Shown: positions 14,712-45,327 of the stretch, one piece after another
Numbering within the stretch: position 1 is the stretch's first letter
Layout of the letters: every line of letters begins with the position of its first letter
Assembly: GCA_035482455.1 (NCBI GenBank)
Contig: DATHQS010000357.1
Span: 28,654-92,653, forward strand
Direction: 5' to 3'
Length of the DNA stretch: 64,000 nt
From: Candidatus Acidiferrales bacterium
GTDB taxonomy: Bacteria > Verrucomicrobiota > Verrucomicrobiia > Limisphaerales > UBA11358
Notes under the pieces: generated by a model
Told to the model about the DNA's origin: nothing
Seen by the model: only the letters and a program-made list of their open reading frames with translations
Database searches by the model: none
Position numbers and translations under genes: made by a program

Positions 14712-14785
14712 GCGGGTGTGGTTCAATGGTAGAATGTGGCCTTCCCAAGGCTGAGACGAGGGTTCGATTCCCTTCACCCGCTCCA
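14712..14785 (+). tRNA. tRNA-Gly (anticodon CCC)
   Basis: Cloverleaf read by eye: acceptor GCGGGTG/CACCCGC, D arm GTTC..GAAT, anticodon stem TGGCC/GGCTG with loop TTCCCAA, T arm GAGGG TTCGATT CCCTT, and an encoded CCA. Confidence 0.9.
14755..14785 (+). repeat. attL: 31-bp core (3' end of tRNA-Gly), identical to 45328..45358
   Basis: gacgagggttcgattcccttcacccgctcca occurs exactly twice in the window, in direct orientation. Confidence 0.9.
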
Positions 14786-14932: not shown

Positions 14933-15241
14933 TCAGGCTTGTTGAAGAATTTGCGCAGCGCGCGGAGGCAGGCTTGATGGGGTAGTAGCAGTATCGCCGT
15001 TGCGATGCGGGAACTTTTCGGAATGAAATCCATTTTGGTCAGTCCGCCACCTGACGAAATCCTGCCAGAAGATCACGCCGCGAAATACGGGAAAACTAGG
15101 TAGCCGAAACCACTCCCGTGCCGTCGAATATGAGATGCCGGCGGCAACGGCAAATTCCTTGGCATTCAGCGCCTGGTCCAAGCGGCGTTTCTCCATGACA
15201 TCCTTTAGCTTGATGCTGCGAAGCTGTTTATCCTGCGGCAT
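14933..15241 (-). CDS. small HTH DNA-binding protein (excisionase/AlpA-like candidate)
   Basis: 102 aa. LNAKEFAVAAGISYSTAREWFRLPSFP is an HTH-like segment. The gene is the first one inside attL. Confidence 0.5.
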   Translation of the reverse strand: MPQDKQLRSIKLKDVMEKRRLDQALNAKEFAVAAGISYSTAREWFRLPSFPVFRGVIFWQDFVRWRTDQNGFHSEKFPHRNGDTATTPSSLPPRAAQILQQA

Positions 15242-15262: not shown

Positions 15263-15640
15263 CTACTGCTTGGTAAAATTGACTGCAACGGCGGTAACGT
15301 GAGTTTTTAGCGAGGCCGCGAACCGCCGGTCAACCGCCTTCACAAAATTTAAGTCACATTTCTGAATCTTCCGCGCGACGGCTTGGAGGCCACTGCCCAA
15401 CAACGTGACTTCTGCCGCGGCAAAACAGATCACCAGCTTTTCGGGTGGTGCATCGGCATTCTTTTCCAGTGCCGGATTGGGAATTGTCTCCGCATACAGC
15501 AATTGCGCGTAGGGCAGAAGATAGCTGTGTGCGTCGTCGGCATACACGTTGAGCGATGCCACGTTCGGATCAATGCCGTAACAGGGATTGTCACGCGTGC
15601 TAGACACCGATGCTTCGTCCGGGTTGGGGTTTGTGTTCAT
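15263..15640 (-). CDS. hypothetical protein (downstream of the relaxase, overlaps its 3' end by 41 nt)
   Basis: 125-aa ORF with no recognisable motif. It is co-oriented with the relaxase. Confidence 0.4.
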   Translation of the reverse strand: MNTNPNPDEASVSSTRDNPCYGIDPNVASLNVYADDAHSYLLPYAQLLYAETIPNPALEKNADAPPEKLVICFAAAEVTLLGSGLQAVARKIQKCDLNFVKAVDRRFAASLKTHVTAVAVNFTKQ

Positions 15641-18323
15641 AGGATATTTTACGTGTTTGTTCGATGCGTTTGCGGGGCGAATGGGATTGCGTTATGCGCT
15701 GGCGGAATTGTTTCAGGAAACGATGGCCGAGTTCCATGACCCGCAAGATGAATTTCTGTCGGCTGACATGCGGGACCACTTCCACGGCTGCCAGTCGCTC
15801 GCTGGAATGGGTGATATGCGAACGCAGCCGCTCGGTATCATCGGTAAAAACCTGGCAGCGTTCGCGACCGCGCGAGATGCTGACGTAAAATTGCTGCTGA
15901 TGGACGGCGGCCAGCGAACGGGACGACGCCACAACCAAAACCTCATCCACCGTCTTGCCCTGGGCGGCGTGCGACGTGACGGCGTAGCCATGCGTGAATG
16001 TGCGGTAATTTTGAGGAATCACGCGGCCATCGGCCAACACCACGGAATCGCCCTGAATCGCCCGCACCTCGACAAGTTCGCCATTGATAAACCGCTTGCC
16101 GACCGTGTTGGCTTGCAGCAACAGCTTGTCACCAGCGGCGACTTTCAATTTCCGTTTCTCCCCCACATCAAACGAGGCGAAGCCTCGACCCAATGGAAGA
16201 AAACTTTCAGAGCCATCGTCACGCTGAACTTTGATCGAATCATTTTCGACTGCGACCACCGCGACCGTTTCATCTTTGGCGAAACCAGCCTTCCGCTGGT
16301 GAAACCGTATCGCCATGCCGGGATGAAATTGCCGCGCATCTTGTTTTTGGGCTTCCGTCCACGATAACGAATCGAAAACCTCAAATTCTTTTTCTTCACC
16401 GGCCAGACGGCCGGACGTTTTCATTGCTGCCCGCACTTTCTCCGTTACCGCCTCGATTTCATTCCAAGTCGGTGCGACCAGCAATGCAGATCGGTTTTGT
16501 TCCAACGCCTTTAGGTATGACTGCGCGACCTTGTCATGCAGATTATCGTTGGAAGATTCAGTGATCGCTCCGATGCGTTCCAGTTGGACGAACGCCTCCA
16601 GCGTCCGTTTTTGTGCCGCCAGTTCGACCGCCTTGCGATACTCAGCTTTGCGCTGGCGACGGATGCGGGTCAATTGGCCGGATTGAAAATTGGAATGTTG
16701 CTCCAGAATCCGCAACGCATCACCACGCACCACCGATGCGTGCTGGCCGGTGTCGCCCGAAAGCACCACACGGGCGTCACGAGCCAGGTCAAACAGCCGC
16801 TTCATATCGTCAATGCCGACCGCCCCGGCTTCGTCCAGCACCACCAACCACCGTTCGTCCAGTTTGGGTTTCGTCAGCAGCAAACTTTGCAGTGTCTTCG
16901 CCTCGAATCCTTCCTTGCGAAGCACATCCGTCGCCGCTGCCGTCGGCGCGCAAAATAGCGGTTCGATTTTCACTTCGGCGCAGGCGGCAACCAACTCGCG
17001 TAACGCCGTGGTCTTGCCCGTGCCTGCCAGACCTCGCAGGCCGGTGATCCGGTCATGCGTGCGGAGGACATGATAAATGGCCCGTTGTTGATCCTCGCCC
17101 AGCCAGTCGGCGGGCCGGTAGCTGGGGTGAATCGGCGCAACGGTATCGCAGGCCGCATTGACCGTCTGAATCAAATCCAGTTCCGTTGCCAAAATCTGTG
17201 GCGTGGATAATCCACGCTCGGTTTTGACCAGTTGATCCGAATACTTTGCCGCTTCTTTCAACGCCGGCAAATCCAATTCACCCGGATGCTGCGCCAGCGC
17301 CACGCCCAACAGTTCATGCTCCGGCACGACCGACTTGCGCTCGAAGACATGGGCGACGGCATAATTCAGGGCTTGGTTTTCCGGTTCAAACCGGCGGACT
17401 TGCCGGACAGGTTGAACCGCCGTGGAGAGTTTTTGCAACGCCAGCAATTCATCGGGCTGTAGTTGTGCCAACTGCAGCTCGCGAACCTGAGCAGTCGAAA
17501 TGCCTTTGATCTTTTTCGCCCGGCTCTGATGCACCGCCAGGGCGATGGCATTATTCGACAATTTGCGCCCCAGTTTTTGTTCCAGTTCCCGAACCACCGC
17601 GTCACGTTGCTGGGAGCGTTTGGAAAACCGTTTTAATATCGCATCACTCACGCCCTCGATTTCAAAGCCGTGTTTCGCGGGACGAATGCGATAGCCGATC
17701 TGTTGGACGCGCTTCGCCAATTCATTGCGATAAACTGCCGTGCCGTAACGAATCGCGTCATACATTCCGCCCGCCTGTAAAGCCTTCCAGCGCTTTTCCG
17801 TTTCATCGAAGGTGGCGTTGAACACGGTGAGATGCGTGTGCAACAGCGGGTCGAGCGCCCGGCTGCTCGTGTGCGTGAACGCGGCGGCGACCAGATTGCT
17901 GGTGTTGCGGTCACGTTGATTGCCCTGCTTGCGAACTCTGGTCGCGGCGAAGGTTTCAAGTTCGCGGAACGCTATGCGCGTCGCTTCCTCATGTGCTGAC
18001 ACGAGCCGGTCGTCATCCATCGTCACCGCCAGCACCGAAACCGATTTTGGCGCGGAACAGGTGAAATCGTAAAACACGCGCCGTTGATTGGTTTTTTCCT
18101 GACGCAGTGTCAGGCGGTTATCGTCATTCGGATTTTTGTTTTCACACAGCGCGTGAAATTGATCGCGGGTTACTGCCTTGTTTAGGCCAAGGCGTTCCGC
18201 GCCCGCGCCGATCCACTGGCCGGGCCGGATTTCACCGGCGGCGTAGTAGTCGTTCTGCGCCAGATGCTCGTCGAAGTAGCTCTCGGCTCTGGCCAGCTTT
18301 TTTTGCGCGACGGCTGTGAACAT
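15600..18323 (-). CDS. MobF-family conjugative relaxase (TrwC/TraI-like) fused to a RecD-like SF1 helicase
   Basis: N-terminal AESYFDEHLAQNDYYAAG, CSAPKSVSVLA and a histidine triad (LLHTHLTVFNATF). P-loop LRGLAGTGKTTAL in the middle, and a C-terminal helicase block (YAVTSHAAQGKTVDEVLVV). Confidence 0.9.
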   Translation of the reverse strand: MFTAVAQKKLARAESYFDEHLAQNDYYAAGEIRPGQWIGAGAERLGLNKAVTRDQFHALCENKNPNDDNRLTLRQEKTNQRRVFYDFTCSAPKSVSVLAVTMDDDRLVSAHEEATRIAFRELETFAATRVRKQGNQRDRNTSNLVAAAFTHTSSRALDPLLHTHLTVFNATFDETEKRWKALQAGGMYDAIRYGTAVYRNELAKRVQQIGYRIRPAKHGFEIEGVSDAILKRFSKRSQQRDAVVRELEQKLGRKLSNNAIALAVHQSRAKKIKGISTAQVRELQLAQLQPDELLALQKLSTAVQPVRQVRRFEPENQALNYAVAHVFERKSVVPEHELLGVALAQHPGELDLPALKEAAKYSDQLVKTERGLSTPQILATELDLIQTVNAACDTVAPIHPSYRPADWLGEDQQRAIYHVLRTHDRITGLRGLAGTGKTTALRELVAACAEVKIEPLFCAPTAAATDVLRKEGFEAKTLQSLLLTKPKLDERWLVVLDEAGAVGIDDMKRLFDLARDARVVLSGDTGQHASVVRGDALRILEQHSNFQSGQLTRIRRQRKAEYRKAVELAAQKRTLEAFVQLERIGAITESSNDNLHDKVAQSYLKALEQNRSALLVAPTWNEIEAVTEKVRAAMKTSGRLAGEEKEFEVFDSLSWTEAQKQDARQFHPGMAIRFHQRKAGFAKDETVAVVAVENDSIKVQRDDGSESFLPLGRGFASFDVGEKRKLKVAAGDKLLLQANTVGKRFINGELVEVRAIQGDSVVLADGRVIPQNYRTFTHGYAVTSHAAQGKTVDEVLVVASSRSLAAVHQQQFYVSISRGRERCQVFTDDTERLRSHITHSSERLAAVEVVPHVSRQKFILRVMELGHRFLKQFRQRITQSHSPRKRIEQTRKISYEHKPQPGRSIGV

Positions 18324-18659: not shown

Positions 18660-18821
18660 GGCGCTTTGACTGGCCGGGTTTCCTCCGGGCACTCGGAAAC
18701 CGGCCAGACAAATCGCCGGCAATGCGAACCTAGACGGTCGAGCACTCGACGGGCGTTTTGAAAATCCCGCGACTCCACACCGTTCCGTTCGCTCCGATTT
18801 TCAAAACGCCCGTCCAGTGCT
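18660..18821. other. structured element copy A (three stem-loops); paralogue of 19228..19415
   Basis: P1 is ctggccgggtttcc/ggaaaccggccag (18670-18707). P3 is a perfect 16-bp stem cgggcgttttgaaaat/attttcaaaacgcccg (18750-18812) with a 31-nt loop. The conserved single-stranded blocks ggcgctttga, acaaatcgccg, gaaacctag and cagtgct are shared with copy B. Confidence 0.6.
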
Positions 18822-18876: not shown

Positions 18877-19062
18877 ATGTCCTTCAATCAAATAAAACGG
18901 CAGGAGGCGCAAAGCCGCATGGCCGCAATTCGCAGGGCACGCCGCAGTCCGGCGGCAGCCGCAGCAGAACAAAGACGGGCATCACTCGTCGGCAATGGAG
19001 CCAAATGGCGCATCACCAATCTCAATGAAGCCGTCCGCGCGATGGCCAAACATTGGGGATGA
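18877..19062 (+). CDS. small basic Arg/Ala-rich protein (possible relaxosome/DNA-binding accessory)
   Basis: 61 aa: MSFNQIKRQEAQSRMAAIRRARRSPAAAAAEQRRASLVGNGAKWRITNLNEAVRAMAKHWG. It lies between the two structured copies and is preceded by gagtgaaaaag. Coding status is uncertain. Confidence 0.3.
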   Translation: MSFNQIKRQEAQSRMAAIRRARRSPAAAAAEQRRASLVGNGAKWRITNLNEAVRAMAKHWG

Positions 19063-19227: not shown

Positions 19228-19415
19228 GGCGCTTTGACTGGCCGGCTTGCTTCCAGGTATTCAGCAACCGACCAGACAAATCGCCGTGATGGAAACCTAG
19301 GCGGTCACGCACTCACCGGTCGTTCTAAAACCGCGCTCAACTCCGCCGTCGTCCGTTCATGCCACTTCCGACCTGCTCCGTTTCGCTGCCGGTTTCAGAA
19401 CGCCCGGTCAGTGCT
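19228..19415. other. structured element copy B (diverged paralogue of 18660..18821)
   Basis: Same block order as copy A, with P1 ctggccggcttgc/gcaaccgaccag and P3 accggtcgttctaaaaccg/cggtttcagaacgcccggt. The stems differ in sequence from copy A but remain complementary. Confidence 0.6.
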
Positions 19416-19554
19416 TGGCTATTTGCTCATGGACGCATCAATTTGAGGTGTTCAGTCGAACGGAATCTTTGGCGGCTTTCTGGAATTGGAAAGCCGGTCA
19501 TTTTGGTTAGACACCATCCCCTTATCAAAAAATAAGGGCGGAAGACGAGCAACG

Positions 19555-20400
19555 GCCGCGCAATTTCCGGGCAATTTCCGCGCAACGTCCGACGCAACAT
19601 CCGGTGAATCATCCGCGCAATTACCGAGCAACTGCCGAGACGTGTCCGGGCAGTTGGCGGGAAACGTCTCACCAAACTCCGGTGAATGTTCGCGCCAAAG
19701 TTCGCACCAAAGTTGGCACGATGGTTCGCAAATGACTTGGTAATTACCGCCGCAGTCCACGCCGCAGTCCGCGCTGCATCCAGCGTGGTATCCGGCGCAG
19801 TATCCGCTGAATCATCCGGGCAATTGCCGGGTAACTTCCGAGCAGTGTCCGAGCAGTTGGCGGGAAACGTCTCACACAACGCCGGTGAATGTCCGCACCA
19901 TGGTTGCCGCAACGGCTCGCAGGCGACTTGGCAATTGCCATAGCAGTCCGCGCCGTAGATCACGCAGCAGACAGGTTGGCATCCACTGAGCAGTCCGCGC
20001 AGTGTCCGGCTTGGCGTCCGGGCAACATCCGATGAATCATCCAGAGAATTTCCGGGCAATTTCCGGGCAGCGTCTGGGCGATTTTTGCATGAAACGCGCA
20101 CCGGCCTGGAACTTTCCAGAGATTTTTCCAGTTTTTCCAATGGCAACGGCTTTTCCGTGGCAAGACACATTCCACGTTCGCGACGAGTCCACAAACATGT
20201 CTGCGTCCAGTCCGTGACCGAGACCCCATTTTGTCCGTGTCCGCACATAATCCGCGTTAACGATTTCTCCGCGACCTGACGGTGTCCAGTCCTCAAATTG
20301 ACCGCGAACACGGTTTACCCATGTCCAGCCTGGACCGCGCACAGTCCGAATTTTTGGTCAGTCCATGGCCTCATCCAGTCCGCGACCGCGACCGCAGTTT
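19555..20400. repeat. ~850 bp array of degenerate 11-bp phased repeats (consensus about gCAnTnTCCGn / cAGTCCG), organised in ~2.5 higher-order ~200-bp units
   Basis: One run reads caatttccggg caatttccgcg caacgtccgac gcaacatccgg tgaatcatccg cgcaattaccg agcaactgccg agacgtgtccg ggcagttggcg. A second run reads cgcagtccacg ccgcagtccgc gctgcatccag cgtggtatccg gcgcagtatcc gctgaatcatc cgggcaattgc. Long-range repeat 19601-19790 vs 19795-19960 vs 20025-20100. ORFs are open in several frames on both strands. Confidence 0.7.
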
Positions 20401-20499: not shown

Positions 20500-20520
20500 A
20501 TGAATTTTCGGAAAATTCAT
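20500..20520. promoter_or_regulatory. perfect 9-bp inverted repeat atgaatttt-cgg-aaaattcat (operator/hairpin candidate)
   Basis: Read directly from the sequence. It sits in the intergenic AT-rich stretch between the repeat array and the protease operon. Confidence 0.25.
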
Positions 20521-20720
20521 TTTGTGAATCTTCCGATAGAAATTTAACGTTGAATTTTTCCGGCTTGAAGTAGTAGAAATCTGTTTGCTTTTAACAAACA
20601 TCCCGGTCACCGCCAAGCGCGTCTGGTGAACGCAGTTTTAAAATGAAATTGCCACTGCGCGACAAATGCTGAATTTTGCCCTCCTTCGCAGGTTTGTGAC
20701 CGACTCTGGCGATGGGGGGA

Positions 20721-21963: not shown

Positions 21964-22068
21964 AACTATCAATTTTATTAATCATGCGCAAGGTTTTTCA
22001 AACTCTGCCGCGCCACTCCACCACATAGATTGACGCGCCGCAAATTCCCAAGCAAACTGCCACGCACA

Positions 22069-25000
22069 ATGTCCAAACGGTTTTTCACCAATGAAGGCGA
22101 GAACACGCTGCTGAAAAAATTTGCCGGCGTGTTCACCCATAACCCTGACATTGAAAGGTTTGACGCGCTTGTTGGTTATCTGCGCGCGTCCGGTTATTTT
22201 GCTCTCCGGCCCCATCTGGAAAAAGTCCCGCTCATCCGCATCATCGTCGGGATTGACGTGGACACCGAACTGGCCCGCCACCATCGCAAGGGGCTGCTCA
22301 TGCTGGGTGACGCCGATAAGACCTTGTCATTCGTTCGCGCCAAACTCGCGGAGGACGTGCAAGGAGCGCCCTACCGGCGCGAGATTGAGGAGGGCATCCG
22401 CCAGTTTGTTGCTGATGTAGCGTCGAAGCGCGTCGAAATCCGGGCGCACTCCACCAAAAAGCTCCACGCCAAGCTCTACATATTTCTGCCGACCGGCTTT
22501 TGCGAACACAAGCCGGGCGCGGTCATCACAGGCTCGTCTAACCTTACTGCCGCCGGTTTGGGTGTCGAGGATGCCGCCAGCAACTACGAGTTCAACGTCG
22601 TGCTGCATGACTACGACGAGGTTGTGTTTGCCAAAAATGAATTCGAAAAGCTCTGGGGCGAAGGTGTCTCTGTTCTGCCGGAGGCGGTCAAGGGTGTTGT
22701 GCGCGAAAGCTACTTGCGCGAAGACCTCACGCCGTTTGAACTTTACATCAAATTTCTCATCGAATACTTCGGCCCGGCCATTGATTACGACCCTAATTCC
22801 GAACGTGATATGCCCAAGGGCCGCAAGGCGTTGAGCTATCAGGGGGACGCCGTCAATGACGGCTGGCTCAAATTGCAAAAACACGGCGGTTTTTTTCTCG
22901 CCGACGTTGTCGGCTTGGGCAAAACCGTTGTGGCGACGCGCATCGCCAAGAAATTTTATTATCATAACGGGTTTCCCAATCATCGCTCCCGTATTTTGAT
23001 CATCACGCCGCCGGCCTTGCGCGAAAATTGGGAAACAGAAATGGAGATGTTCGGTCTGGATGATGCCGTCAAGATCATCAACAACGGCAGCCTGCATAAA
23101 ATCCGCGACCCGGAGAAATACGACCTCATCATCATCGACGAGGCGCACAAGTTTCGCAATGACACCGCCGACGGTTACGACCTGCTCCAGAAATTGTGCA
23201 AGACCCGCACCAAACATCGTTTGCCTGATGACGAGTTTGCCCGGAAAAAAGTTATCCTGATCTCCGCCACGCCATTGAATAATCGCCCCGCTGACATCCG
23301 CAACCAGGTCTTGCTGTTTCAGGACGGCAAGGATTCCACCGTCATCGGCAACCTCCAGCATTTTTTCGCGCAGCGCATCAAGGAATATCAGGTCGCAACC
23401 AATCCGTTGAAGACGCCCGACCGGCAGGTGGCTCATGCCGCTGTCGCACGCATCTACGAACTCATCCGCGAGCAGGTCGTGCAACCGCTCACCGTCCGCC
23501 GCACGCGGACCGACCTCGTCGAGGATAAACGCTGGAAGGCCGATCTGGACGCGCAGGGCATCATTTTTCCCAAGGTGGAAAAACCCACGCCGATTCTTTA
23601 CCAGCTTGATGATGGCCTCGGTGTGCTATACGACCGCACCATTCAACTGTTGGCCTTCCCTGACTCCGGCGGTCTAACCTACAACCGCTACCGCGCAATC
23701 GCGTTTCTCTCCACCCTAGAGCTGAAGCAGAAATACGAACGTGCCGACCTTGTTGCTACGCAGTTGGCGCGCATCATGAAGACGATGCTGGTTAAGCGTC
23801 TGGACAGCAGTTTTATCGCGTTCAAAAAAAGTCTTGGCCGGTTCCGCGATGCCACGCAGGCGATGCTCACCATGTTCGAGCGCGGTAATATTTACATCGC
23901 GCCCAGCCTGCATGTCTCGGATTATATTTTAGAAGACCGCGAAGACGAACTTATCGCGGCCATCGCCGAAGCCAGCGAAACCGACCCAACGATCACCGCT
24001 TGCACGCCCAAAGATTTCAAACCCGAATTTCTCGACGGTTTGAAACACGACGGTAAAATTCTCGACGAGTTGGTTGCAGCCTGGGAACAAGTCCAAGCCG
24101 ATCCAAAATTGGATGAATTTCTTTCCTGCTTACGCGGCGAGGGCAGCCGTCCCAATCTGCTCACCAAGCCGTTCAATGAAACCGGCAAGCTGGTCATTTT
24201 TTCTGAGGCACGTGACACCACGCGCTATTTGACGGAAAAACTCAACGCTGCCGGTTTCGGCCCGGTGCTGACCGTGGATTCCCACAACCGCAAAGACGAA
24301 ATGCCCAAGGTCCGCGCGAATTTTGACGCGAACGTCGCCATTGGCGATGCCTCCAACCGTAGGGATGATTTCCACATCCTCATTTCCACAGAAGTCCTTG
24401 CCGAAGGAGTGAACCTCCATCGCGCCCATGTTATTGTGAATTATGATACGCCGTGGAACTCCACGCGCCTCATGCAGCGCATTGGCCGCGTCAACCGCAT
24501 TGGCAGCACTGCCAAGGCCGTCCACATTTTCAATTTCTACCCCACCACCCAGGTCGATGATGACATTGATCTCCAGCGCAAGGCGTTTCTGAAATTGCAG
24601 GCGTTCCACACCGCGCTCGGTGAGGACAGCCAGATTTATTCGCCCGACGAGGAAGTCGACAACTTCGGCCTGTTTGACCGCGCCATTGAGGAGGAGCGTG
24701 ACGAACGCCTCCGGTTCCTGTCCGAGTTGCGGGATTTCAAGGACGCGAACGAGGATGATTTCCGCAGGATTCGCAATCTCCCGCTTCGTGCCCGTTGCGG
24801 TCGGTGTGACGCAACCCAGACCGGCCACACGCTTGCTTTCATCCGCGATGACCGTCGTGATGCTTTTTATCGCATTGCTGCTGAACTTCAGGAGATTGGT
24901 TTCGTCGAAATGGCCCGGGCTTTCCGTGCCGAAGTTTCCGAATCGGCGGCCCCGTTGCCCGCCACGCACCATGAACAGGTGCTAGACGCGTTGGAGGATT

Positions 25001-25386
25001 TCCGCACCAAGCTCGCCGCCGATGCCGTGCGTGAACGGGCCGTGGACCACACCGCCGGTCCCAATGAGCAAAAGGCCATGCGTCTGCTGGCTGCCGCGCA
25101 GGGGATGCCCAACGTCTCCGCTGCCGAAAAAGCCCTGCTCGTCGCCGCCCAGCACGCCATCCGCGTTGCCAAATTTCAAGATCTGTCGCGCAAGCTCAAC
25201 GCGCTCCAAAAAGCTGTCGTCAAAAAACCGGTCACCACCGCCGCGCTCCTGGACAAGCTTTTGGAGATCATTCGCTCATACCCGCTTGATGTGGCCGAAC
25301 CGGATGCCGATGCGTCCGAAACACCTGTCGTTGACCATCGGTTTATACCGCATATCATACTGTCGGAATCTTTCACCACGAAATGA
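22069..25386 (+). CDS. PLD (single HKD) nuclease domain fused to an SNF2-family helicase/ATPase
   Basis: LHAKLYIFLP...VITGSSNLTAAGLG (HKD/GSxN, about 22456-22560). SNF2 motifs LADVVGLGKTVVA, LIIIDEAHKFRN (about 23127-23160), LISATPLNNRPADIRNQ, STEVLAEGVNLHRAHVIVNYDTPWNSTRLMQRIGRVNRIGS. The stop overlaps the next start (ATGA at 25383-25386). Confidence 0.9.
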   Translation: MSKRFFTNEGENTLLKKFAGVFTHNPDIERFDALVGYLRASGYFALRPHLEKVPLIRIIVGIDVDTELARHHRKGLLMLGDADKTLSFVRAKLAEDVQGAPYRREIEEGIRQFVADVASKRVEIRAHSTKKLHAKLYIFLPTGFCEHKPGAVITGSSNLTAAGLGVEDAASNYEFNVVLHDYDEVVFAKNEFEKLWGEGVSVLPEAVKGVVRESYLREDLTPFELYIKFLIEYFGPAIDYDPNSERDMPKGRKALSYQGDAVNDGWLKLQKHGGFFLADVVGLGKTVVATRIAKKFYYHNGFPNHRSRILIITPPALRENWETEMEMFGLDDAVKIINNGSLHKIRDPEKYDLIIIDEAHKFRNDTADGYDLLQKLCKTRTKHRLPDDEFARKKVILISATPLNNRPADIRNQVLLFQDGKDSTVIGNLQHFFAQRIKEYQVATNPLKTPDRQVAHAAVARIYELIREQVVQPLTVRRTRTDLVEDKRWKADLDAQGIIFPKVEKPTPILYQLDDGLGVLYDRTIQLLAFPDSGGLTYNRYRAIAFLSTLELKQKYERADLVATQLARIMKTMLVKRLDSSFIAFKKSLGRFRDATQAMLTMFERGNIYIAPSLHVSDYILEDREDELIAAIAEASETDPTITACTPKDFKPEFLDGLKHDGKILDELVAAWEQVQADPKLDEFLSCLRGEGSRPNLLTKPFNETGKLVIFSEARDTTRYLTEKLNAAGFGPVLTVDSHNRKDEMPKVRANFDANVAIGDASNRRDDFHILISTEVLAEGVNLHRAHVIVNYDTPWNSTRLMQRIGRVNRIGSTAKAVHIFNFYPTTQVDDDIDLQRKAFLKLQAFHTALGEDSQIYSPDEEVDNFGLFDRAIEEERDERLRFLSELRDFKDANEDDFRRIRNLPLRARCGRCDATQTGHTLAFIRDDRRDAFYRIAAELQEIGFVEMARAFRAEVSESAAPLPATHHEQVLDALEDFRTKLAADAVRERAVDHTAGPNEQKAMRLLAAAQGMPNVSAAEKALLVAAQHAIRVAKFQDLSRKLNALQKAVVKKPVTTAALLDKLLEIIRSYPLDVAEPDADASETPVVDHRFIPHIILSESFTTK

Positions 25387-28300
25387 ATTTAGCCGACTGC
25401 CAGGCCCAGTTTCAAAAAAAGTATTCACTGGAAAACTGGCGCGTCCTGTTGCCGCAATTGTTGCCCGGCGTCGCGCTCTTTGCGCAACCCCAGGATTATC
25501 CGTTGACCAATGACCGTGAGCGTAGCATCGCCACTGCCCGCCGCCAGTTCGGCGCGGCCACGCTCGCCGATGGCAAGCGCATTGCTTTTTACGAGATTGA
25601 TGTCGCCGCCAAGGTGGACTTGCTCCGCAACCGCGTCGCCCTTCGCGAGATCGTCGCCCGCTGTATTGACGAAGTCAGCGCGCACACCGTGCTCGCGTTT
25701 TTTGTCCATCCCGACAAGCCCGTTTACCGCCTGACCTATGCCGCCAAGGAAAGTCGGGTCGGTGACGACCTCAAAATCCACACCGGACAGACCGCCACGC
25801 GCCGGTACACCTACGTGCTGGGGCCGGGTGAAAGGCGCCGCACCGCCGCGTTGCGGTTGACTGCGTTATCCGAAAAGCGCGACACGACCGGGCTGAAGGA
25901 GGTCACCGACGCCTTTTCCGTCGAGAAGATCAACCGCGAATTTTTCGACACTTACAAGTCGCACTACCAGAAATTTTGCGACCATCTGCTCGCTGGCGAC
26001 GCACCGGCCAAGGTTTTCAAACTGCCACTGCGGGGTCTGGCGGATGAAGCCCGCGACCACACGCTGAAGCCGGTGCGCGACTTCGTCAAAAAGCTGTTGG
26101 GCCGCCTTGTCTTTCTTCATTTCCTCCAGAAGAAAGGCTGGTTGGGTTGTCCCGCTAATGTGACCCCTTGGAAAAACGGTGATCCTGATTTTCTCCGCCA
26201 GCTTTACACCACCGCGCCCGTCACCGACCTGCAACGGTTCCATTCCCGCCGCCTCGTGCCATTGTTCTTTGACACGCTGAACCGGCGGCGAAAAGATGAT
26301 TTATTTTCCATCACCGGCACCCGCGTCCCGTATCTTAACGGCGGTTTGTTTGAGCGCGATTTTGACGGCGTGGAGCAGATTGATTTCCCCGCGGAATTGT
26401 TCCACGACGTGCTGGAATTTTTCGGCCAATACAATTTTACCATTGATGAGAACGATCCTGATGACCACGAGATCGGCATTGACCCCGAGATGCTCGGGCA
26501 CATCTTTGAAAACTTGCTGGAAGATAACAAGGACAAGGGCGCTTACTACACGCCCAAGGCCGTCGTCCAATACATGTGCCAGCAGAGCCTCATCCATGCG
26601 CTCATCGGCCATTTTCCAAGTGACCCCGTCGCCCGCACCGAAATCGAAAAGCTCATCCGCACCAAGGAACCCATTGATGCCCGTCAGGATTCCTGGCTCG
26701 CCCGGCATGCCACGCAGTTGACCAAGGTTCTTGAAGATCTTCGCATCTGCGACCCCGCCATTGGTTCCGGCGCGTTTCCCATCGGCCTGCTTCAGGAGAT
26801 TTATTGGACCAAGCTCGCCATAAATTCCGGCCTCGACCGCGCCAAGGCCAAGCGCGATATCATCCAAAATTCCATTTTTGGCGTGGATATTGACGCTGGC
26901 GCCGTGGAAATCGCCCGGTTGCGTTTCTGGTTGGCGCTCATCGTTGAGGAAAAGAGCCCCGTGCCGTTGCCCAACCTCGATTACAAGATCATGCAGGGTA
27001 ATTCCCTGCTGGAAAGTTTTGAGGGCATTGACCTGAGCAATCTTACTGGCAAACAGCGCAAAGCCATCCAGTTGATCGGCACGGAGCAGACGGAACTGGG
27101 CCTCAAGACCGTCTCCACCGAACTGACCATCGAGTTCGCCGAGGGCAAGCAAGCCGAGATCACCAGCCTCATCGGCGGCTACTTTGGTCAGGACGATCTG
27201 GAGCTGAAACAAAAGTTGCATGGCGAGATTGATGACCTCGTGCTTGGCCACATTGAATACAATCTGGATTTGCATGAGGAACGGATTGAGGCGGCGCTCG
27301 ATAATGCCCGCAAGGAACTCAAACGCAAGCAGGCACGCGCCCGTGGCTACGAACCTACCAAGCGGGAGGCCGGCCGCATTGCCGAACTGGAAGCACAACT
27401 GGCTGAGGTGGACCGCAAGCGGGCGGCACTGGCGGAATTGCAGGAAAAACCGGAACGACCATTCTTTCTCTGGCACCTGTATTTCCAAAATGTGTTTGCT
27501 CGCGGCGGGTTCGATATCGTCGTAGCCAATCCGCCTTACGTCCGGCACGAGGCAATCAAGGATCAAAAGGCCGCGTTGCAAGCCGCGCCTTACGAATGTT
27601 ACGACGGCTTCGCCGACCTGCTGGTTTATTTTTACGAGCGTTCGGTAAAACTACTGCGTCCCGGTGGCGTGCTGACTTTCATCACCTCAAATAAATTTTA
27701 CCGCGCCGGTTATGGCGAGAAACTGCGCGGTTTTCTTGCCCGTGAACTAACCCTGCACCGGCTGATTGATTTTGGCGACGCACCCGTGTTCGAGGCCATC
27801 GCCTATGCCTCCATTCTCGAAGGAACACGCGCCGCGCCGTCTACTGACGCCTCGGCACGGATTTACACTTGGGGAAAGGGAATGCCCCTCGACAGTATTG
27901 CCTCCGTAATTGGGTCGCACGGCCAGCCAATTCGCCAAGACGAGCTCAAGCCAGACGGCTGGCGGCTTGAATCACCAATAGTGCTTCGTCTTCTCGCCAA
28001 ACTCCGCGCAAACGGCACGCCGTTAGGTGAGTATGTGAAAGGGTGTTTGTATTATGGAATCAAGACCGGCCTCAACGCAGCATTTATTGTAGATCGCGCC
28101 ACGCGCGACCAGCTCATTGCCGAGCACTCCTCGTCGGCACAGCTTTTGAAGCCTTGGCTTAGGGGACAAGATATTGACCGCTGGCAGATTTCCCCCTCAG
28201 ACCTTTGGCTGATTTTTCCGCCCCGAGGAACGGACATCAACAAATACCCTGCTATCAAAGGCTATTTAAATAAATTTAAGGAACAACTTTCACCAGGAGT

Positions 28301-29570
28301 TGACGGTGGCCGAAAGCCTGGCGATTATGAATGGTTCGAGATACAAGACAATGTTGCATATTGGCGTGAGTTCAAAACGCCAAAAATTGTCTTCCCAGAT
28401 ATTGCCAAGAGTTCTGAATTTGCTTGGGACAGTGGTGGCCATTTTGTCGGCAACACCGGCTATATACTTCCAACGCAAGATAAGTGGCTGCTCGCTGTTC
28501 TCAACTCATCGGCAGTTTTCTGGTTTTACCTCAATGTTAGCAACTTCATCCGGGGCGGGTATGTGCGGTTTATTAGGCAATATGTTGAAACCATTCCCAT
28601 CCCCACCACGACCGCTGCGGACCATACGGAGTTAAGCGCCCTCGTTGACCATATCCTTACGGCGAAGCGCGCCGGAGACGAGGAGACGGTGCATCAGTTA
28701 GAACACGAAATTGACGCGCACGTTTTCCGGCTCTACGCCCTCACGCCGGAAGAGATAAAGCTGGTGCAGTCCGTCCATGTCGAATCGGTTTCCGACAACC
28801 CGAAGTCCAACCTGTTCAACCGCGAGCAGCCCGAACTCAAAGCGGTGTCACCTTACTTCACCAACGCTGATCGCACCGCAATTTACGACCGGGTACTGAC
28901 CGAACTCAAAGCGTCGTCCCCCTATTTCACCACCACCGCCATCACCCGCCGCGCACAGGAGTTGGATCCTGAAATCAACCTCGACTCTTTGGCTGTGTAT
29001 CTCTCTGGGGTTACGGCCAATGGTTTGGTTCATGATGCTGGTCGCGGCTGGTATTCCGGATTGAGCAATCCCGTGCCGCTGGATGCCAAGCCGGTCGTCA
29101 AACTCATCCGTGCCGTCGAAAAGGCGTTCCCGCTGCTGGAGTTCACCGTCTGGTCCACCGCGCAAATCAATCCCTGGATGCACCACCTGCTCGCTCAGCC
29201 TGTCACGTTCCTTTACGCCCCGGCGGACACCCTTGAATCCGTCGGCGACACCCTCCGTGAACAAGGCTGGGAAATCGCCCTCGACCCCGGCAAGAAGGAG
29301 GGATCGAAACTGGTTCGCCCCGGCGAGAAAATGCTGGTCTTGCGCCCCACCCATTCCAAACAGCCCGCCCCGGCTGGGCGGCAGGCCAAAATCGAGCAAA
29401 TCTTGGTGGATTTGCAGCTCGAAGCCGGGCGCTTGGCGCTCATGGATACCTCCGAAGCCCAAGGTGTCATTCGGGCAATTTTGGGCCAATATCTTGTGCA
29501 AGTGGCTGAAATGAAGACCTATGCAGACTTTAGAACACTTAAGTTAAATGATTTAGAAGCACTTAACTAA
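25383..29570 (+). CDS. 1395-aa N6-adenine DNA methyltransferase (Eco57I/type IIG-like, TaqI-type C-terminal specificity domain) with an extra C-terminal ~250-aa AbiEi-like module
   Basis: Motif I ICDPAIGSGAFPIG, motif IV VVANPPYVRHE (NPPY at 27528-27539), TRD-like GTPLGEYVKGCLYYGIKTGLNAAFIVD. The C-terminal tail (about 28800-29567) contains FTTTAITRRAQEL..SLAVYLSGVTANGLVHDAGRGWYS and IEQILVDLQLE. Confidence 0.85.
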   Translation: MNLADCQAQFQKKYSLENWRVLLPQLLPGVALFAQPQDYPLTNDRERSIATARRQFGAATLADGKRIAFYEIDVAAKVDLLRNRVALREIVARCIDEVSAHTVLAFFVHPDKPVYRLTYAAKESRVGDDLKIHTGQTATRRYTYVLGPGERRRTAALRLTALSEKRDTTGLKEVTDAFSVEKINREFFDTYKSHYQKFCDHLLAGDAPAKVFKLPLRGLADEARDHTLKPVRDFVKKLLGRLVFLHFLQKKGWLGCPANVTPWKNGDPDFLRQLYTTAPVTDLQRFHSRRLVPLFFDTLNRRRKDDLFSITGTRVPYLNGGLFERDFDGVEQIDFPAELFHDVLEFFGQYNFTIDENDPDDHEIGIDPEMLGHIFENLLEDNKDKGAYYTPKAVVQYMCQQSLIHALIGHFPSDPVARTEIEKLIRTKEPIDARQDSWLARHATQLTKVLEDLRICDPAIGSGAFPIGLLQEIYWTKLAINSGLDRAKAKRDIIQNSIFGVDIDAGAVEIARLRFWLALIVEEKSPVPLPNLDYKIMQGNSLLESFEGIDLSNLTGKQRKAIQLIGTEQTELGLKTVSTELTIEFAEGKQAEITSLIGGYFGQDDLELKQKLHGEIDDLVLGHIEYNLDLHEERIEAALDNARKELKRKQARARGYEPTKREAGRIAELEAQLAEVDRKRAALAELQEKPERPFFLWHLYFQNVFARGGFDIVVANPPYVRHEAIKDQKAALQAAPYECYDGFADLLVYFYERSVKLLRPGGVLTFITSNKFYRAGYGEKLRGFLARELTLHRLIDFGDAPVFEAIAYASILEGTRAAPSTDASARIYTWGKGMPLDSIASVIGSHGQPIRQDELKPDGWRLESPIVLRLLAKLRANGTPLGEYVKGCLYYGIKTGLNAAFIVDRATRDQLIAEHSSSAQLLKPWLRGQDIDRWQISPSDLWLIFPPRGTDINKYPAIKGYLNKFKEQLSPGVDGGRKPGDYEWFEIQDNVAYWREFKTPKIVFPDIAKSSEFAWDSGGHFVGNTGYILPTQDKWLLAVLNSSAVFWFYLNVSNFIRGGYVRFIRQYVETIPIPTTTAADHTELSALVDHILTAKRAGDEETVHQLEHEIDAHVFRLYALTPEEIKLVQSVHVESVSDNPKSNLFNREQPELKAVSPYFTNADRTAIYDRVLTELKASSPYFTTTAITRRAQELDPEINLDSLAVYLSGVTANGLVHDAGRGWYSGLSNPVPLDAKPVVKLIRAVEKAFPLLEFTVWSTAQINPWMHHLLAQPVTFLYAPADTLESVGDTLREQGWEIALDPGKKEGSKLVRPGEKMLVLRPTHSKQPAPAGRQAKIEQILVDLQLEAGRLALMDTSEAQGVIRAILGQYLVQVAEMKTYADFRTLKLNDLEALN

Positions 29571-29616
29571 ATCCAATTAGTTTAATAATTTGGAGATGAT
29601 TAATAGGTAAAAATCT

Positions 29617-30726
29617 ATGTTTTCACCGGGGCTATTGACGGCGGGGGCACTGCAAAAGCAGGCGAAAACTCTGGGCGGTTGCAACCAGGATATCTTGGAA
29701 CGCAGCCTTTACGCCCTCACCCTTCTGGGGCATCTGGCAGATACCAAAATCCCCTTCATTTTTAAGGGCGGCACCAGCCTGCTCCTGCACCTGCCCGAAG
29801 TGCGCCGTCTTTCGATTGATATTGATATCGTCTGCGGTGAAAAGCCGGCGGTGATCGATGCGGCAGTGGCGCAGATTGGCAAAAAAACACCGTTCATCCG
29901 GTCCGAGGAACACGTTCGAGATCATTTTATCAAGCTGCCGCAGCGCCGGCACTTCAAGTTTTTTTATCGTTCTGCGATCGGCGGCCAGGAAGTTCCCATC
30001 TTGTTGGATGTGGTGGAGGAGTCGCGGATCCACCACCAGCTGACAACCCGCCCGATTCAAACGTCATTCATCAAGCCGGACCGCGAGATCATGGTTCAGC
30101 TCCCCACCTTGGAGAGCTTGTTGGGGGACAAGTTGACGGCTTTCGCGCCCACGACCGTCGGTGTGCCGCTACGTAAATCTGATGGTCAGCCCGGCGATGT
30201 CATGCAGGTCACCAAACAGTTGTTCGACATCGGCGTGTTGTTCGGGGCGGCCACAAATTTCAATGAAGTCGCCTCCACCTATGACGCCGTACAGAGACTG
30301 GAATCGGAATATCGTCCGACCAAACCCAGCCGCGAGGCTTCGCTGGCGGATACCTTTCAGGCATGCCTGGCGACGACCGCATCAAAGACACGCGACGTGG
30401 CGGCTTACGCGGATGCGCCGCTGTTGCAGAGCGGATTCCAAAGTTTGCGCGGGCATTTGACGTGGCCCGGATTTGCGGCGACTCAAGAACCGAAGCGTAT
30501 CATTGCCGCTCGAACCGCTGTTTTGGTTGCTCATCTGCGTGCTGGTGTTCCATTTGATTTTGCCGCCCATCGCTTCACCGGCAGCACCGAACAAATCGAG
30601 ACCGTCCGTGGTCTCACACTAAACGGGACGTCATTGGCTTGGCTAGACGGAATGCGGGCCGTCAATCCGGAAGCTTATTATTATTGGCATCGTGCCATCC
30701 AGCTAACCCCGCCTCCGGCCGCTTGA
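29617..30726 (+). CDS. AbiEii/AbiGii-family nucleotidyltransferase (type IV TA toxin-like)
   Basis: IPFIFKGGTSLLLHLPEVRRLSIDIDIVC (about 29755-29840) matches the KGGTAL...R.S.DlD signature of DUF1814/AbiEii NTases. The gene starts 46 bp after the methyltransferase stop. Confidence 0.75.
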   Translation: MFSPGLLTAGALQKQAKTLGGCNQDILERSLYALTLLGHLADTKIPFIFKGGTSLLLHLPEVRRLSIDIDIVCGEKPAVIDAAVAQIGKKTPFIRSEEHVRDHFIKLPQRRHFKFFYRSAIGGQEVPILLDVVEESRIHHQLTTRPIQTSFIKPDREIMVQLPTLESLLGDKLTAFAPTTVGVPLRKSDGQPGDVMQVTKQLFDIGVLFGAATNFNEVASTYDAVQRLESEYRPTKPSREASLADTFQACLATTASKTRDVAAYADAPLLQSGFQSLRGHLTWPGFAATQEPKRIIAARTAVLVAHLRAGVPFDFAAHRFTGSTEQIETVRGLTLNGTSLAWLDGMRAVNPEAYYYWHRAIQLTPPPAA

Positions 30727-30854
30727 TGCTGAGCATGACAACGACAACAATGACGATGATGATGACCACCACCACCACCACCGCCGCCGCCGCCACCAAG
30801 ACGATAACGAACAGGAGTCAGTGTGCGGTAACAATTTCAAAAATAAGGGATTAA
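30726..30854 (+). CDS. 42-codon Thr/Met/Ala-rich mini-ORF bridging two genes (leader-peptide-like)
   Basis: MLSMTTTTMTMMMTTTTTTAAAATKTITNRSQCAVTISKIRD. Its ATG overlaps the AbiEii stop (tgATG) and its TAA lies 4 nt before the next ATG at 30859. It contains (ACC)6 and (GCC)4 runs. Whether it is translated is unproven. Confidence 0.35.
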   Translation: MLSMTTTTMTMMMTTTTTTAAAATKTITNRSQCAVTISKIRD

Positions 30855-30858
30855 AATC

Positions 30859-33180: not shown

Positions 33181-33205
33181 CCCACCACCAAAGCCAAACT
33201 AATCT

Positions 33206-34516
33206 ATGCAACGTAACGCTGCCATCACGCATAAGACCACCACCAAAAGTATTTTGGACCTCCAAAACCTTTTTGACCATGGTCACCTGAATCTGGAACC
33301 GGGGTTTCAGCGTCAATCCGTCTGGAACGAGAGGGATCGCGCCAAGTTGATAGACAGCATTTTGCGCAATTATCCGTTGCCCGCCATTTTTCTCTATAAG
33401 CGCGAAGAGGAAGGCAACCTGGTTTTTGACGTGATCGATGGCAAACAGCGGCTCGAATCCATTTTCATGTTCATGGGCGCGATGCGGGGGAAGTATTGGA
33501 CCCGTACGCAGTTGCCCGACATGGAATCTGTGGAATGGATTGATTGGGCGCATTTGCGCCGACGTGGCAAACAGCACCTCATCACCGGCTATGAAATTCC
33601 CGTCATCGAGGTGGATGGGGAGATGGGTGACATCGTTAGTGTGTTCGTCCGGATCAATTCCACTGGTAAGGCTCTGACGCAACAGGAGAAACGGCACGCC
33701 CGCTATTGCGACAGTCAGTTTTTGAAGGAGGCTTCCCGTTTGGCCAACCGGTTCGAGCATTATTTTACCACGAACGGTATTTTCAGCAGCGGCCAACTGA
33801 GCCGGATGAAGCACGTCGAGTTCATATGCGAACTCATGCTGTCACTGGTGCAGGGCGATGTGTTGAACAAAAAGACCGCGCTGGACCGGGTCATGGCCAC
33901 GTCCTCATTTGACGGCCGGCAGCTGAACAAAGCCTCGCGCATGGTCACCACCACGCTGAACCGTATCCGCCGCATGTTTCCGCACCTCAAGGCGACGCGG
34001 CTGCGCCAGGTAACAGATTTTTACAGCTTGGCGGTGTTGATTGGGAAATTTGAATCGGAGGGGATGATCCTCACCGACCGGCGCCGCAATCGCCTCGCAT
34101 GGGATCTGTTGCAAGCCTTCGTGACCCGGGTAGATGAGGTACGGGAGTTGCAACGCAAGGCCAAGGGGGCGCGGCCGGATCAGGAGCTTTACCGGGATTA
34201 TTTGCTGACGGTGTCACAGATGACCGACGACGTAAGCCAGCGCCGTAAGCGCGAGCTCATTCTGCGCGGGATATTGGAAAGCCTGTTCACCAAGCGGGAT
34301 GGCCAACGCGGGTTCACTGCCGAACAGCGCCGCATCATTTGGAATACGTCTGTCAACCGTACCTGCTCCCATCCGGGCTGCAATCGCAAGCTATCTTGGG
34401 ACGATTTTACAATCGACCATATCAATCCGCACAGCAAAGGTGGCCGGAGCCAGTTGGAAAATGCGGCGCTCATGTGCCGGGAGCACAATTCCGCCAAGGG
34501 CAACCGCCGCAGATAA
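33206..34516 (+). CDS. DUF262 (ParB/GmrSD-N-like) domain fused to a C-terminal HNH nuclease
   Basis: LEPGFQRQSVWNERDRAKLIDSILRNYPLPAIFLY...VIDGKQRLESI (DGQQR-type motif about 33436-33450). C-terminal CSHPGCNRKLSWDDFTIDHINPHSKGGRSQLENAALMCREHNSAKGNR (HNH). Confidence 0.85.
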   Translation: MQRNAAITHKTTTKSILDLQNLFDHGHLNLEPGFQRQSVWNERDRAKLIDSILRNYPLPAIFLYKREEEGNLVFDVIDGKQRLESIFMFMGAMRGKYWTRTQLPDMESVEWIDWAHLRRRGKQHLITGYEIPVIEVDGEMGDIVSVFVRINSTGKALTQQEKRHARYCDSQFLKEASRLANRFEHYFTTNGIFSSGQLSRMKHVEFICELMLSLVQGDVLNKKTALDRVMATSSFDGRQLNKASRMVTTTLNRIRRMFPHLKATRLRQVTDFYSLAVLIGKFESEGMILTDRRRNRLAWDLLQAFVTRVDEVRELQRKAKGARPDQELYRDYLLTVSQMTDDVSQRRKRELILRGILESLFTKRDGQRGFTAEQRRIIWNTSVNRTCSHPGCNRKLSWDDFTIDHINPHSKGGRSQLENAALMCREHNSAKGNRRR

Positions 34517-34743
34517 GAAGCCGGCGAGAAGGGCATTCTCATGCCGCCCACCTTACCGGTCGCGGGGTTGTTGGGGATTGCTTTTTTCATAAAACTGCAC
34601 GAGAAAAGTGGCGGCGTGACAGATTTAGGTCGTTTTTTTTGGAAAACTGCGGGAATCAAGTTTCTTAAACTGCTTAACATCAAACGCTTGTAGACATAGC
34701 GCTTTTTCCGGCGTTCCTTGATAAAGGATAGGTTTAATATACT

Positions 34744-36261: not shown

Positions 36262-36284
36262 GTCGCGGTCTGGTTTTGGGTCAA

Positions 36285-36316
36285 GCTGCCCCTGCCACCG
36301 GCAGCATTTCTTTTCC
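36285..36316 (+). terminator. weak rho-independent terminator candidate after the 505-aa gene
   Basis: gctgcc-cctgccacc-ggcagc followed by atttcttttcc. Confidence 0.35.
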
Positions 36317-36500
36317 AACGAGTTACCTGCTGGGTGGCGGCATCGTGGAAAAACTTGGGATTGAACGCTTTATGCCCTGATTCGATTTTTTGGCGCGGCT
36401 CAATTATCTTTGAATGGCTATGGTGGGTTGGACAGCCTTTGTCCAACCGGCTTTGAGATGATTGTCAAAAAGCTTTAAAAGCACGAAATGCGGCAATAGA

Positions 36501-37538: not shown

Positions 37539-37650
37539 ATCAATGCGTTTGGTGTCCCTGCTCGAATACTGGCCCAAGCAGCCTCCATCGTCGGGATGGC
37601 TTGGATGTCATTGACACTGGCCCACCAATTCCCTGACCCTGGCCTTGTCC

Positions 37651-45233: not shown

Positions 45234-45238
45234 AGCCA

Positions 45239-45267: not shown

Positions 45268-45327
45268 AACATCGCGAAATGCCAGCAAATAAGGCTATTC
45301 CACACCACTTTACACCACTATGCCCGT

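Follow-up and report, generated by a model that had tools for sequence, protein, structure and literature searches.

A phased array of direct repeats beside a probable MOBF origin of transfer in an apparently mobilizable Verrucomicrobial island

INTRODUCTION

Phased arrays of iterons beside an origin of transfer (oriT) are known from a handful of model plasmids, where they are represented by stbS, parC-like sites, and overdrive. Here, we describe an array built on this plan in a family of apparently mobilizable Verrucomicrobial islands that is abundant but uncharacterised. The array lies in a 64,000-nucleotide stretch of the Candidatus Acidiferrales bacterium assembly GCA_035482455.1 (contig DATHQS010000357.1, positions 28,654 to 92,653 of the forward strand), which we call the window and whose own numbering we use throughout. 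About 45 direct units follow what is probably the oriT of a genomic island encoding a MOBF relaxase. An original prediction, made from the window sequence, had presented these repeats as a helically phased 11-bp array and as a possible binding platform for an island protein.

The closest described systems differ in repeat length, repeat number, and partner proteins. In the IncW plasmid R388, stbS consists of ten 9-bp repeats with 2-bp spacers beside a MOBF oriT, and the consensus of its repeats (stbDR) is T/CTGCATCAT (10.1101/2022.04.29.490116). The R388 relaxase, TrwC, acts on the substrate GCACC-GAAA-GGTGC-GTATTGTCT, with ATAGCC on the far side of the nick; it cuts after TGTCT and requires a purine as the next base (PMC4176350). 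The type II partition site parC of plasmid R1 has two sets of five iterons that are bound cooperatively into a nucleoprotein filament (PMC4949242), and the type III partition site tubC of pBtoxis has seven 12-bp direct repeats in two clusters, the site of a filament wrapped by the helix-turn-helix (HTH) protein TubR (10.1101/2022.04.29.490116). Overdrive is a cis site by the nick site of Ti plasmids; a ParA-type ATPase and its small partner (VirC1/VirC2) bind it, and these proteins assemble the relaxosome and position it (PMC4949242).

RESULTS

Period, units, and polarity of the array

The main array occupies 19549-20078 of the + strand and comprises ~45 direct units of 11-12 bp (45 between 19560 and 20078 when tiled by eye), with a mean period of 11.3 bp and a higher-order repeat of ~203 bp. 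Across 19555-20100, the + strand reads as head-to-tail units, nearly all of which begin with G (GCA or GAA) and many of which end in TCCG. An iteratively refined weight matrix gave the unit consensus GCAATTTCCGG, with information peaks at G1, A3, C8, C9, and G10, and recovered 29 sites in three in-phase blocks (19560-19682, 19785-19874, and 19999-20077). Two kinds of unit can be told apart: type A reads GCAAnnTCCGn, and type B reads GCACCAAAGTTC or GCAGTCCGCGCC. The array is strongly polar, with 29 copies of TCCG vs a single CGGA.

The periodicity stands far above its controls. Autocorrelation over 19555-20100 exceeded dinucleotide-preserving shuffles at lags 11 (z = 7.7) and 12 (z = 9.8), with echoes at lags 22-24, 33-34, and 45, and the Fourier spectrum contained a single sharp peak at 11.3 bp (power 17.6, vs a maximum of 4.2 in 200 shuffles). 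Among 550-bp windows along the 64 kb, the array also ranked top for signal between 10.8 and 12.2 bp (16.1 vs a median of 1.6). The phasing proposed in the original prediction is therefore real, although its strict 11-bp period is not. Because 11- and 12-bp units are mixed, the mean period is 11.3 bp. Tandem Repeats Finder likewise reported both 11-bp arrays (19556-19631, 19613-19639, 19837-19857, and 20047-20069) and 12-bp arrays (19688-19730 and 19748-19782). The helical repeat of DNA is 10.5 bp, and the proposal of one repeat per helical turn does not hold exactly at this spacing.

The higher-order copies of ~200 bp that had been proposed were recovered as a 203-bp repeat at 19588-19974 (74% matches; Tandem Repeats Finder). 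A separate repeat search returned a 195-nt pair with 73% identity and a 58-nt block present four times, at 19537, 19594, 19797, and 20022.

Beyond the main array lies a trailing zone (20100-20400, + strand) of (C)AGTCC(G) copies. On the + strand of 19555-20400 there are 10 copies of AGTCC, 6 of them at 20186-20377, whereas the opposite strand has none (0.3 expected). The repeats had been expected to continue to about 20400. The AGTCC copies do so, but the 11-bp signal is weak past 20100 and fades to a 5.6-bp harmonic (6.4 vs a maximum of 3.3 in shuffles). In related loci, the AGTCC zone either terminates the array or occupies its middle. Elsewhere in the window, the array motif occurs at background density, with no second cluster. 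We rejected a sigma-54 promoter in the GGCACGATGGTTCGCA unit, as its spacing is off by one base (judged by eye) and the likeness is a by-product of the 12-bp repeat.

Coding and RNA status

A 294-aa open reading frame (ORF) runs along the minus strand at 19427-20311. It has no Pfam match, and across 10 compared arrays no reading frame is conserved on either strand. Nine homologous arrays contain at least two stop codons in every frame. The longest open frame also switches strand and frame between near relatives, being minus frame 0 in the window, plus frame 2 in locus L001, and plus frame 0 in locus L013; for the L001 array, the gene caller of the source database chose the opposite strand. Stops per frame number 1-7 in the arrays vs 9.4 in shuffles, and the ORF is long because the composition of the repeat makes stops rare. 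With 11- and 12-bp units intermixed, the repeat also passes continually from one reading frame to another. On these comparisons, the ORF is an artefact that should not be annotated, which leaves the stretch without a convincing gene, as originally described.

Nor did the array resemble an RNA gene. An Rfam search at E <= 1 gave no match, and the folding energy was no better than that of shuffles on either strand (z = -0.34 and -0.89). We found no minus-strand promoter or terminator framing the array and no significant promoter signal.

A probable oriT nic region next to the array

The array begins beside a conserved block with three parts. Hairpin 1 (19473-19496) precedes a T-run and resembles a terminator on the + strand. 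A segment with an invariant TGGTGTC core follows at 19500-19518 and is read on the minus strand, and hairpin 2 (19519-19538, minus strand), with the form CCCTTAT-N6-ATAAGGG, is the proposed relaxase-recognition inverted repeat. The minus strand of the block thus reads 5'-CCCTTAT-TTTTTG-ATAAGGG-GATGGTGTCT-AACCAAAAT, the last two elements being the TGGTGTC segment. The first array unit, GCAACGGCCGC at 19549, starts ~10 bp past the distal arm of hairpin 2.

Across 61 distinct versions of the block from related contigs, the TGGTGTC core never changes. By contrast, the stem of hairpin 2 varies yet stays paired, appearing as CCTTAC/GTAAGG, CCGAAGC/GCTTCGG, CCCAACG/CGTTGGG, or CTACCG/CGGTAG. Among 20 representative loci, its covariation amounted to 27 double-change cells vs 8.9 expected; none of 500 shuffles reached this score, and every slid register of the stem scored worse. 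The block is laid out like the R388 R(25+18) oligonucleotide and has the features of a MOBF oriT, namely an inverted repeat 5' of a conserved segment and a nearby gene for a TrwC/TraI-type relaxase. Because a MOBF relaxase gene lies 1.2 kb from the hairpin, the stem covaries, the core is invariant, and the layout is R388-like, 19473-19545 is probably the nic region of the oriT used by the relaxase of this island. With this assignment, the oriT of the island family can now be placed.

The segment resembles the R388 sequence GTATTGTCT, and by analogy the minus strand would be nicked between GATGGTGTCT and AACCAAAAT, which puts nic between the complements of positions 19509 and 19508. The putative relaxase substrate would be the nic-region oligonucleotide 5'-CCCTTATTTTTTGATAAGGGGATGGTGTCTAACCAAAAT, with predicted cleavage after TGTCT. 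If both position and strand are as the analogy suggests, the relaxase side of the island would be transferred first and the array last.

Related arrays at the same position

We scanned species-representative genomes for the 24-nt anchor of hairpin 1, GGAAAGCCGGTCATTTTGGTTAGA, and found it in 14 places, nearly all of them in Verrucomicrobial metagenome-assembled genomes (MAGs). The exceptions were two contigs, one binned as Calothrix (L011) and one as Cyclobacteriaceae (L020), and one MAG labelled "bacterium". The Calothrix contig is probably chimeric or truncated, as its copy of the anchor is terminal and adjoins AT-rich DNA of cyanobacterial appearance. Contigs encoding one variant of p61, a small protein of the island, yielded four more arrays.

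In total, 12 distinct related Verrucomicrobial loci carry a TCCG array on the same strand and in the same place. The first TCCG lies 78 nt from the start of the anchor in 8 of 10 loci, and the Fourier peak falls at 11.1-11.3 bp in 11 of 13 related arrays (the 12 distinct loci, one sampled twice). Array extent ranges from ~130-200 to 570 bp in the related loci, compared with ~590 bp in the window, and the arrays of L018 and L114 are short and degenerate. Near relatives differ by whole units, as expected of slippage, while keeping the motif; GGCACGATGGTT, for example, is present in three copies in L013 but in a single copy in L001. Related arrays are ~74-87% identical in nucleotide sequence, and their cargo differs on both sides.

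Substitutions are spread unevenly along the unit. In alignments of the homologous arrays, which set repeat against repeat, rates were 0.09-0.14 at G1, A3, C8, C9, and G10, vs 0.28 at unit position 6 and 0.36 at position 11 (chi-square p = 4e-16). This pattern fits selection on a recognition motif.

Close relatives of the relaxase pointed to contigs that have the array but in which different cargo separates it from the relaxase. In L001, a beta-lactamase/Calx-beta gene lies between p61 and an inverted-repeat module. The cargo of L006 consists of JetABCD and a gene for a 253-aa protein, and no att repeats were found for that element. Taken together, these comparisons make the array a conserved part of the backbone in a family of apparently mobilizable Verrucomicrobial islands that integrate at tRNA genes and encode a MOBF relaxase.

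Outside this family, blastn of the 2.6-kb intergenic region that holds the array returned nothing from plasmid databases. A scan of viral contigs for three phased GCAnnnTCCG units found only unrelated phage iterons. These are runs of 3-5 units of 11-bp GCAnnnTCCG-type iterons in IMG/VR phage contigs (L103, L105, L107, and L108), and the motif spacing therefore recurs elsewhere as an ordinary short operator or origin repeat.

An alternative module in sister elements

In the slot occupied by the array, ~86 sister loci have short 7-bp iterons and a three-gene operon, K-L-M, encoding K116, L273, and M250. K-L-M is present in 4 of the anchor-bearing loci and in almost all of the best 80 metagenome loci found via one module protein (at 4606-6369 in L010; also in L012, L015, L019, L023-L102, L116, and L118). 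Hairpin 2 of these elements is followed by 2-3 copies of GCG(G/A)CAA and then by 5-7 inverted copies of TTG(C/T)CGC at a spacing of 10-13 bp. In other sister lineages, TTCGTC, TCAACG, or ATCAAC iterons replace TTG(C/T)CGC. Each set numbers 8-10 short iterons, and the operon lies immediately downstream of it. Like the array-bearing island, the K-L-M elements are small islands without secretion genes.

K116 (~116-130 aa) is HTH-like; its basic N-terminal domain and its C-terminal peptide are conserved, and a proline-rich linker lies between them. Its first 70 residues are 80-90% identical among loci of one iteron type and 40-73% identical between types, and such tracking of iteron type is what would be expected of a cognate binder, making K116 a putative one. 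L273 carries SKGSLGKS after its first strand and is predicted to adopt a highly divergent fold of the ParA/MinD/Get3 class. The predicted model (pTM 0.78) matched solved structures in Foldseek with E = 1e-5 to 1e-3 and TM scores of 0.45-0.57 normalised by target, the best matches being Get3, ATPase-type HypB, Cfd1, MipZ, ParF/TP228 ParA, and MinD. At the sequence level, L273 had no match in Pfam, NCBIfam, PDB sequences, or plasmid proteins (tblastn); K116 had none among PDB sequences, and no homology of either protein to solved structures or plasmid proteins was found. M250 gave a faint TraM-like hit only.

In the sequences examined, the array and K-L-M never occurred together. A scan of 84 K-L-M loci revealed no TCCG cluster in any of them, and no homolog of K116, L273, or M250 was found in the array-bearing loci tested or in the window, where a K116 profile search gave a best E of 0.5. 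Because both modules share one oriT anchor, they look like interchangeable cassettes joined near hairpin 2. One MAG, JANXWY01, contains four copies of the oriT anchor (L010, L014, L021, and L022) with both module types among them, which suggests either co-resident related islands or a population-level bin.

Candidate binders

Only five genes are common to the array-bearing loci: those for the relaxase, p125, p102, p61, and the integrase. The original prediction had named the island's ParB-like proteins, the 61-aa basic protein, and the 102-aa HTH protein as possible binders, and none of the three fared well. The ParB/RepB-like proteins have no counterpart in the other array-bearing loci compared (tblastx). 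An identical p61 protein, P0142, accompanies TCCG arrays in L109, L110, L111, and L114 and K-L-M modules in L116 and L118; p61 therefore cannot set specificity, and we rejected it as the determinant. For p102, Pfam returned weak hits to HTH families only. As the modules are mutually exclusive and no binder gene lies next to the array, the binder probably acts in trans, supplied by the host or by a co-resident element, or else is one of the few shared backbone proteins.

The surrounding island

The array sits after the relaxase gene in a 2.6-kb stretch without long genes. The island itself is delimited by 31-bp direct repeats. Its attL (14755-14785, + strand) is the 3' end of a tRNA-Gly(CCC) gene (14712-14785), and attR (45328-45358, + strand) is a perfect copy of that end beside the gene for the island's tyrosine integrase (44199-45308, minus strand). 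These repeats give an island of 30.6 kb, with the relaxase at one end and the integrase at the other. We considered a junction of tandem elements near 20400 and rejected it, as the sole att copy is that at 45328. Among the island proteins, we saw no type IV secretion or coupling protein, and the island therefore looks like an integrative mobilizable element.

The relaxase gene (15600-18323, minus strand) encodes a MOBF (TrwC-type) relaxase-helicase of 907 aa. It has 1,854 relatives at E <= 1e-50, and no exact match to its sequence is on record. The gene for p125, a conserved protein (15263-15640, minus strand), has a start that overlaps the end of the relaxase gene. At the att-proximal end lies the gene for p102 (14933-15241, minus strand), a small HTH-like protein of 102 aa that we interpret as possibly excisionase-like.

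On the other side of the relaxase, p61 (18877-19062, + strand) is a genuine gene for a conserved basic protein of 61 aa, with 466 relatives and no Pfam family. Its predicted structure is all-helical; the model, of low confidence, has two long helices and is not a ribbon-helix-helix. We regard p61 as a conserved backbone partner of the relaxase. Two paralogous inverted-repeat modules of ~160-190 bp, each with two long imperfect inverted repeats, flank this region: module A (18660-18821) lies just upstream of the p61 gene, and module B (19228-19415) just upstream of the oriT hairpins. The arms can be long and well matched, as in a pair at 18741-18821 (26 nt, 96% complementary), and these modules may be accessory-protein sites or operators.

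Beyond the array, 22030-38631 is densely filled with defence-type cargo, including a PLD-SNF2 helicase together with a 1395-aa Eco57I/MmeI-like methylase that has DUF6577, a UvrD-like helicase together with GmrSD-HNH, AbiEii, and proteins of the Mrr-like, dCTP-deaminase-like, and HNH kinds. The same slots in related islands hold other cargo, including JetABCD, HsdM, radical-SAM/glycosyltransferase genes, and a DUF4011 helicase. A separate cassette at 38649-41952, absent from the other array-bearing loci, contains the two RepB/ParB-like genes followed by a large serine recombinase on the minus strand. A Fic protein gene also lies within the island, and a DUF1559/N-methyl gene flanks it; this flanking gene and the names given to relatives of the relaxase put the island in Verrucomicrobiota.

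DISCUSSION

We propose that the array is a cooperative protein-binding platform on double-stranded DNA, centromere-like or relaxosome-organising, whose binder is supplied in trans. We give this interpretation about an even chance of being correct. A sequence-specific protein would bind the units cooperatively as double-stranded DNA and build a long nucleoprotein filament beside the relaxosome, much as StbA does on stbS, ParR on parC, and VirC1/VirC2 on overdrive. The role of the filament would be to position the element after excision, or to arrange the relaxosome so that it can be passed to the secretion system of a helper. The original suggestion of a centromere or nucleation site remains the best fit to the comparative context, with its oriT adjacency and its sister elements carrying iterons, an HTH-like protein, and a ParA/MinD-fold protein, although the binders it named are not supported.

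Several points weigh against a trans-served binding platform. We found no array-specific protein near the arrays and no cognate gene beside them, and the island contains no dispersed copies of the motif, so there is no operator regulon like that of StbA. As the 11.3-bp spacing differs from the helical repeat, the sites would spiral round the helix rather than share one face. Array length varies about four-fold between relatives, and the exact number of units is therefore unconstrained. The test of position-specific conservation is biased by repeat-vs-repeat alignment and shared ancestry, the covariation of K116 with iteron type could arise from linkage alone, and the position of nic and the identity of the transferred strand rest on the analogy with R388.

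A more specific and decidedly less probable version of this proposal concerns the origin of the array. One island lineage may have swapped its adaptor/ParA-type module and 8-10 iterons for a cis-only array about five times larger, an orphan super-centromere that captures an adaptor encoded elsewhere. The adaptor would come from the host or from another element, either a co-resident island or a conjugative helper, and the island would parasitise the machinery by which another element is positioned or its relaxosome delivered. The occurrence of both module types on separate copies of one oriT in JANXWY01 bears on this scenario.

The most serious rival is that the array does nothing. After loss of K-L-M, iterons may have expanded by slippage and unequal exchange into a satellite that now drifts. 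The wide variation in unit number and array length among close relatives, the short and degenerate arrays of L018 and L114, and the absence of an adjacent cognate gene would all suit such a history. However, a drifting satellite would not readily account for a constant offset from the hairpin in 12 loci that are 74-87% identical amid differing cargo, nor for a period kept at 11.1-11.3 bp or for unequal conservation along the unit, in which the CCG core is kept. The unit motif is also unrelated to the TTGYCGC or TCAACG iterons of K-L-M elements, and the array is therefore not a simple expansion of them. We consider a functionless satellite unlikely on balance. About half as likely as the satellite, in our view, is that the array acts as DNA structure independent of any protein, through curvature or a supercoil-sensitive conformation that aids melting or nicking at nic. 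This would suit an array that abuts the oriT hairpin, and we note that 11.3 bp is near the repeat of underwound DNA, a link of our own making. Yet only 10 A/T tracts of at least four bases occur in 546 bp, so that A-tract phasing is weak; conservation falls on G, A, and CCG and not on A/T tracts, and sister elements function with a short iteron set.

The remaining explanations seem to us still more improbable. The original prediction had also mentioned iteron replication origins, and an iteron-type replication origin (oriV) of the excised island would explain the many direct repeats, the AT-rich patch of 60-100 bp (GC 25-32%) at 20500-20600, and a DnaA-box-like 9-mer at 20442 (TTATTCACA, one mismatch). 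Against this, no Rep gene was found in the island, and the single DnaA-like box is at chance level (the 2.7 kb scanned would contain ~0.6 one-mismatch boxes by chance). Sequence rightward of the array, including the AT-rich patch, is not conserved in relatives, which have different cargo directly there, and we know of no iteron origin that comes near forty-five 11-bp units. An oriV is thus a poor prospect, and we rate a non-coding RNA template fractionally lower still. On the minus strand, the array reads CCGGAUGUUGC, CGGAUGAUUC, and the like, which recall the GGA motifs of sponge RNAs, and a CsrA/RsmA-type sponge with ~30 CGGA/GGAUG motifs can be imagined. But the array shows neither the Rfam match nor the excess structure of a CsrB/RsmZ-type RNA, the promoter and terminator for such a transcript were not found around it, and the island ORFs scanned included no CsrA-like gene; moreover, sister elements clearly have an operator or iteron set at the equivalent position. 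Least credible of all is that the 294-aa ORF is a genuine repeat protein. It is long and open in the window, but the stops in every frame of nine homologous arrays, the shifting longest frame, the lack of a Pfam hit, the frame shifts imposed by mixed units, and the compositional rarity of stops leave it next to no standing.

Two aspects of the array are unusual. It exceeds the model arrays several-fold in size without having a cognate gene beside it, and at the same oriT other islands have a complete adaptor/ParA-like operon in its place. If the array is indeed a docking site served in trans, it would illustrate in compact form how one mobile element can exploit the DNA-positioning machinery of another, and GCAAnnTCCG at 11.3 bp would provide a sequence handle for finding the partner protein.

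Among described systems, stbS is one of the closest to the array of the window. In both, two or more sets of direct repeats with an 11-bp cycle adjoin a TrwC-type oriT; here, the mean period is 11.3 bp with many runs of exactly 11 bp, and the neighbouring oriT has a TrwC-family relaxase, a covarying hairpin, and a TGTCT-A segment. The differences are equally clear. R388 has ten repeats vs ~45 here, and the consensus T/CTGCATCAT differs from GCAATTTCCGG. The stbABC operon lies downstream of stbS, whereas no stb-like genes and no HTH-plus-ParA pair lie beside the array. StbA has dispersed operator copies, a feature without parallel in this island. The stb side of R388 is its leading region, whereas the array would lie on the hairpin side of nic if our nic assignment is right. 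It is rather the sister elements that match the order stbA-stbB-stbC, with repeats, a small DNA-binding protein, a ParA-like protein, and a third gene.

The array can also be compared with parC, tubC, and overdrive. It resembles parC in its 11-bp direct iterons, but the two sets of five at parC flank the par promoter and adjoin parM and parR, and neither an actin-like ATPase, a ribbon-helix-helix ParR, nor such a promoter context was found at the array or in the island. The 12-bp direct repeats of tubC are similar in length, but there are seven of them next to tubR-tubZ, and we found no tubulin-like GTPase in this island. Overdrive, with VirC1/VirC2, resembles the K116-L273 module of the sister elements more than it does the array, being a single short element rather than a phased array, and the island contains no VirC homologs. 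The K-L-M layout is accordingly comparable to stbS-stbA-stbB-stbC or to VirC2/VirC1 at overdrive in organisation and predicted fold, as distinct from demonstrated homology. Because its consensus differs, it is several times longer, and the defining neighbour genes are absent, the array is a member of none of the stbS, parC, and tubC families, yet its design suggests that it works in the way that the stbS and parC arrays do.

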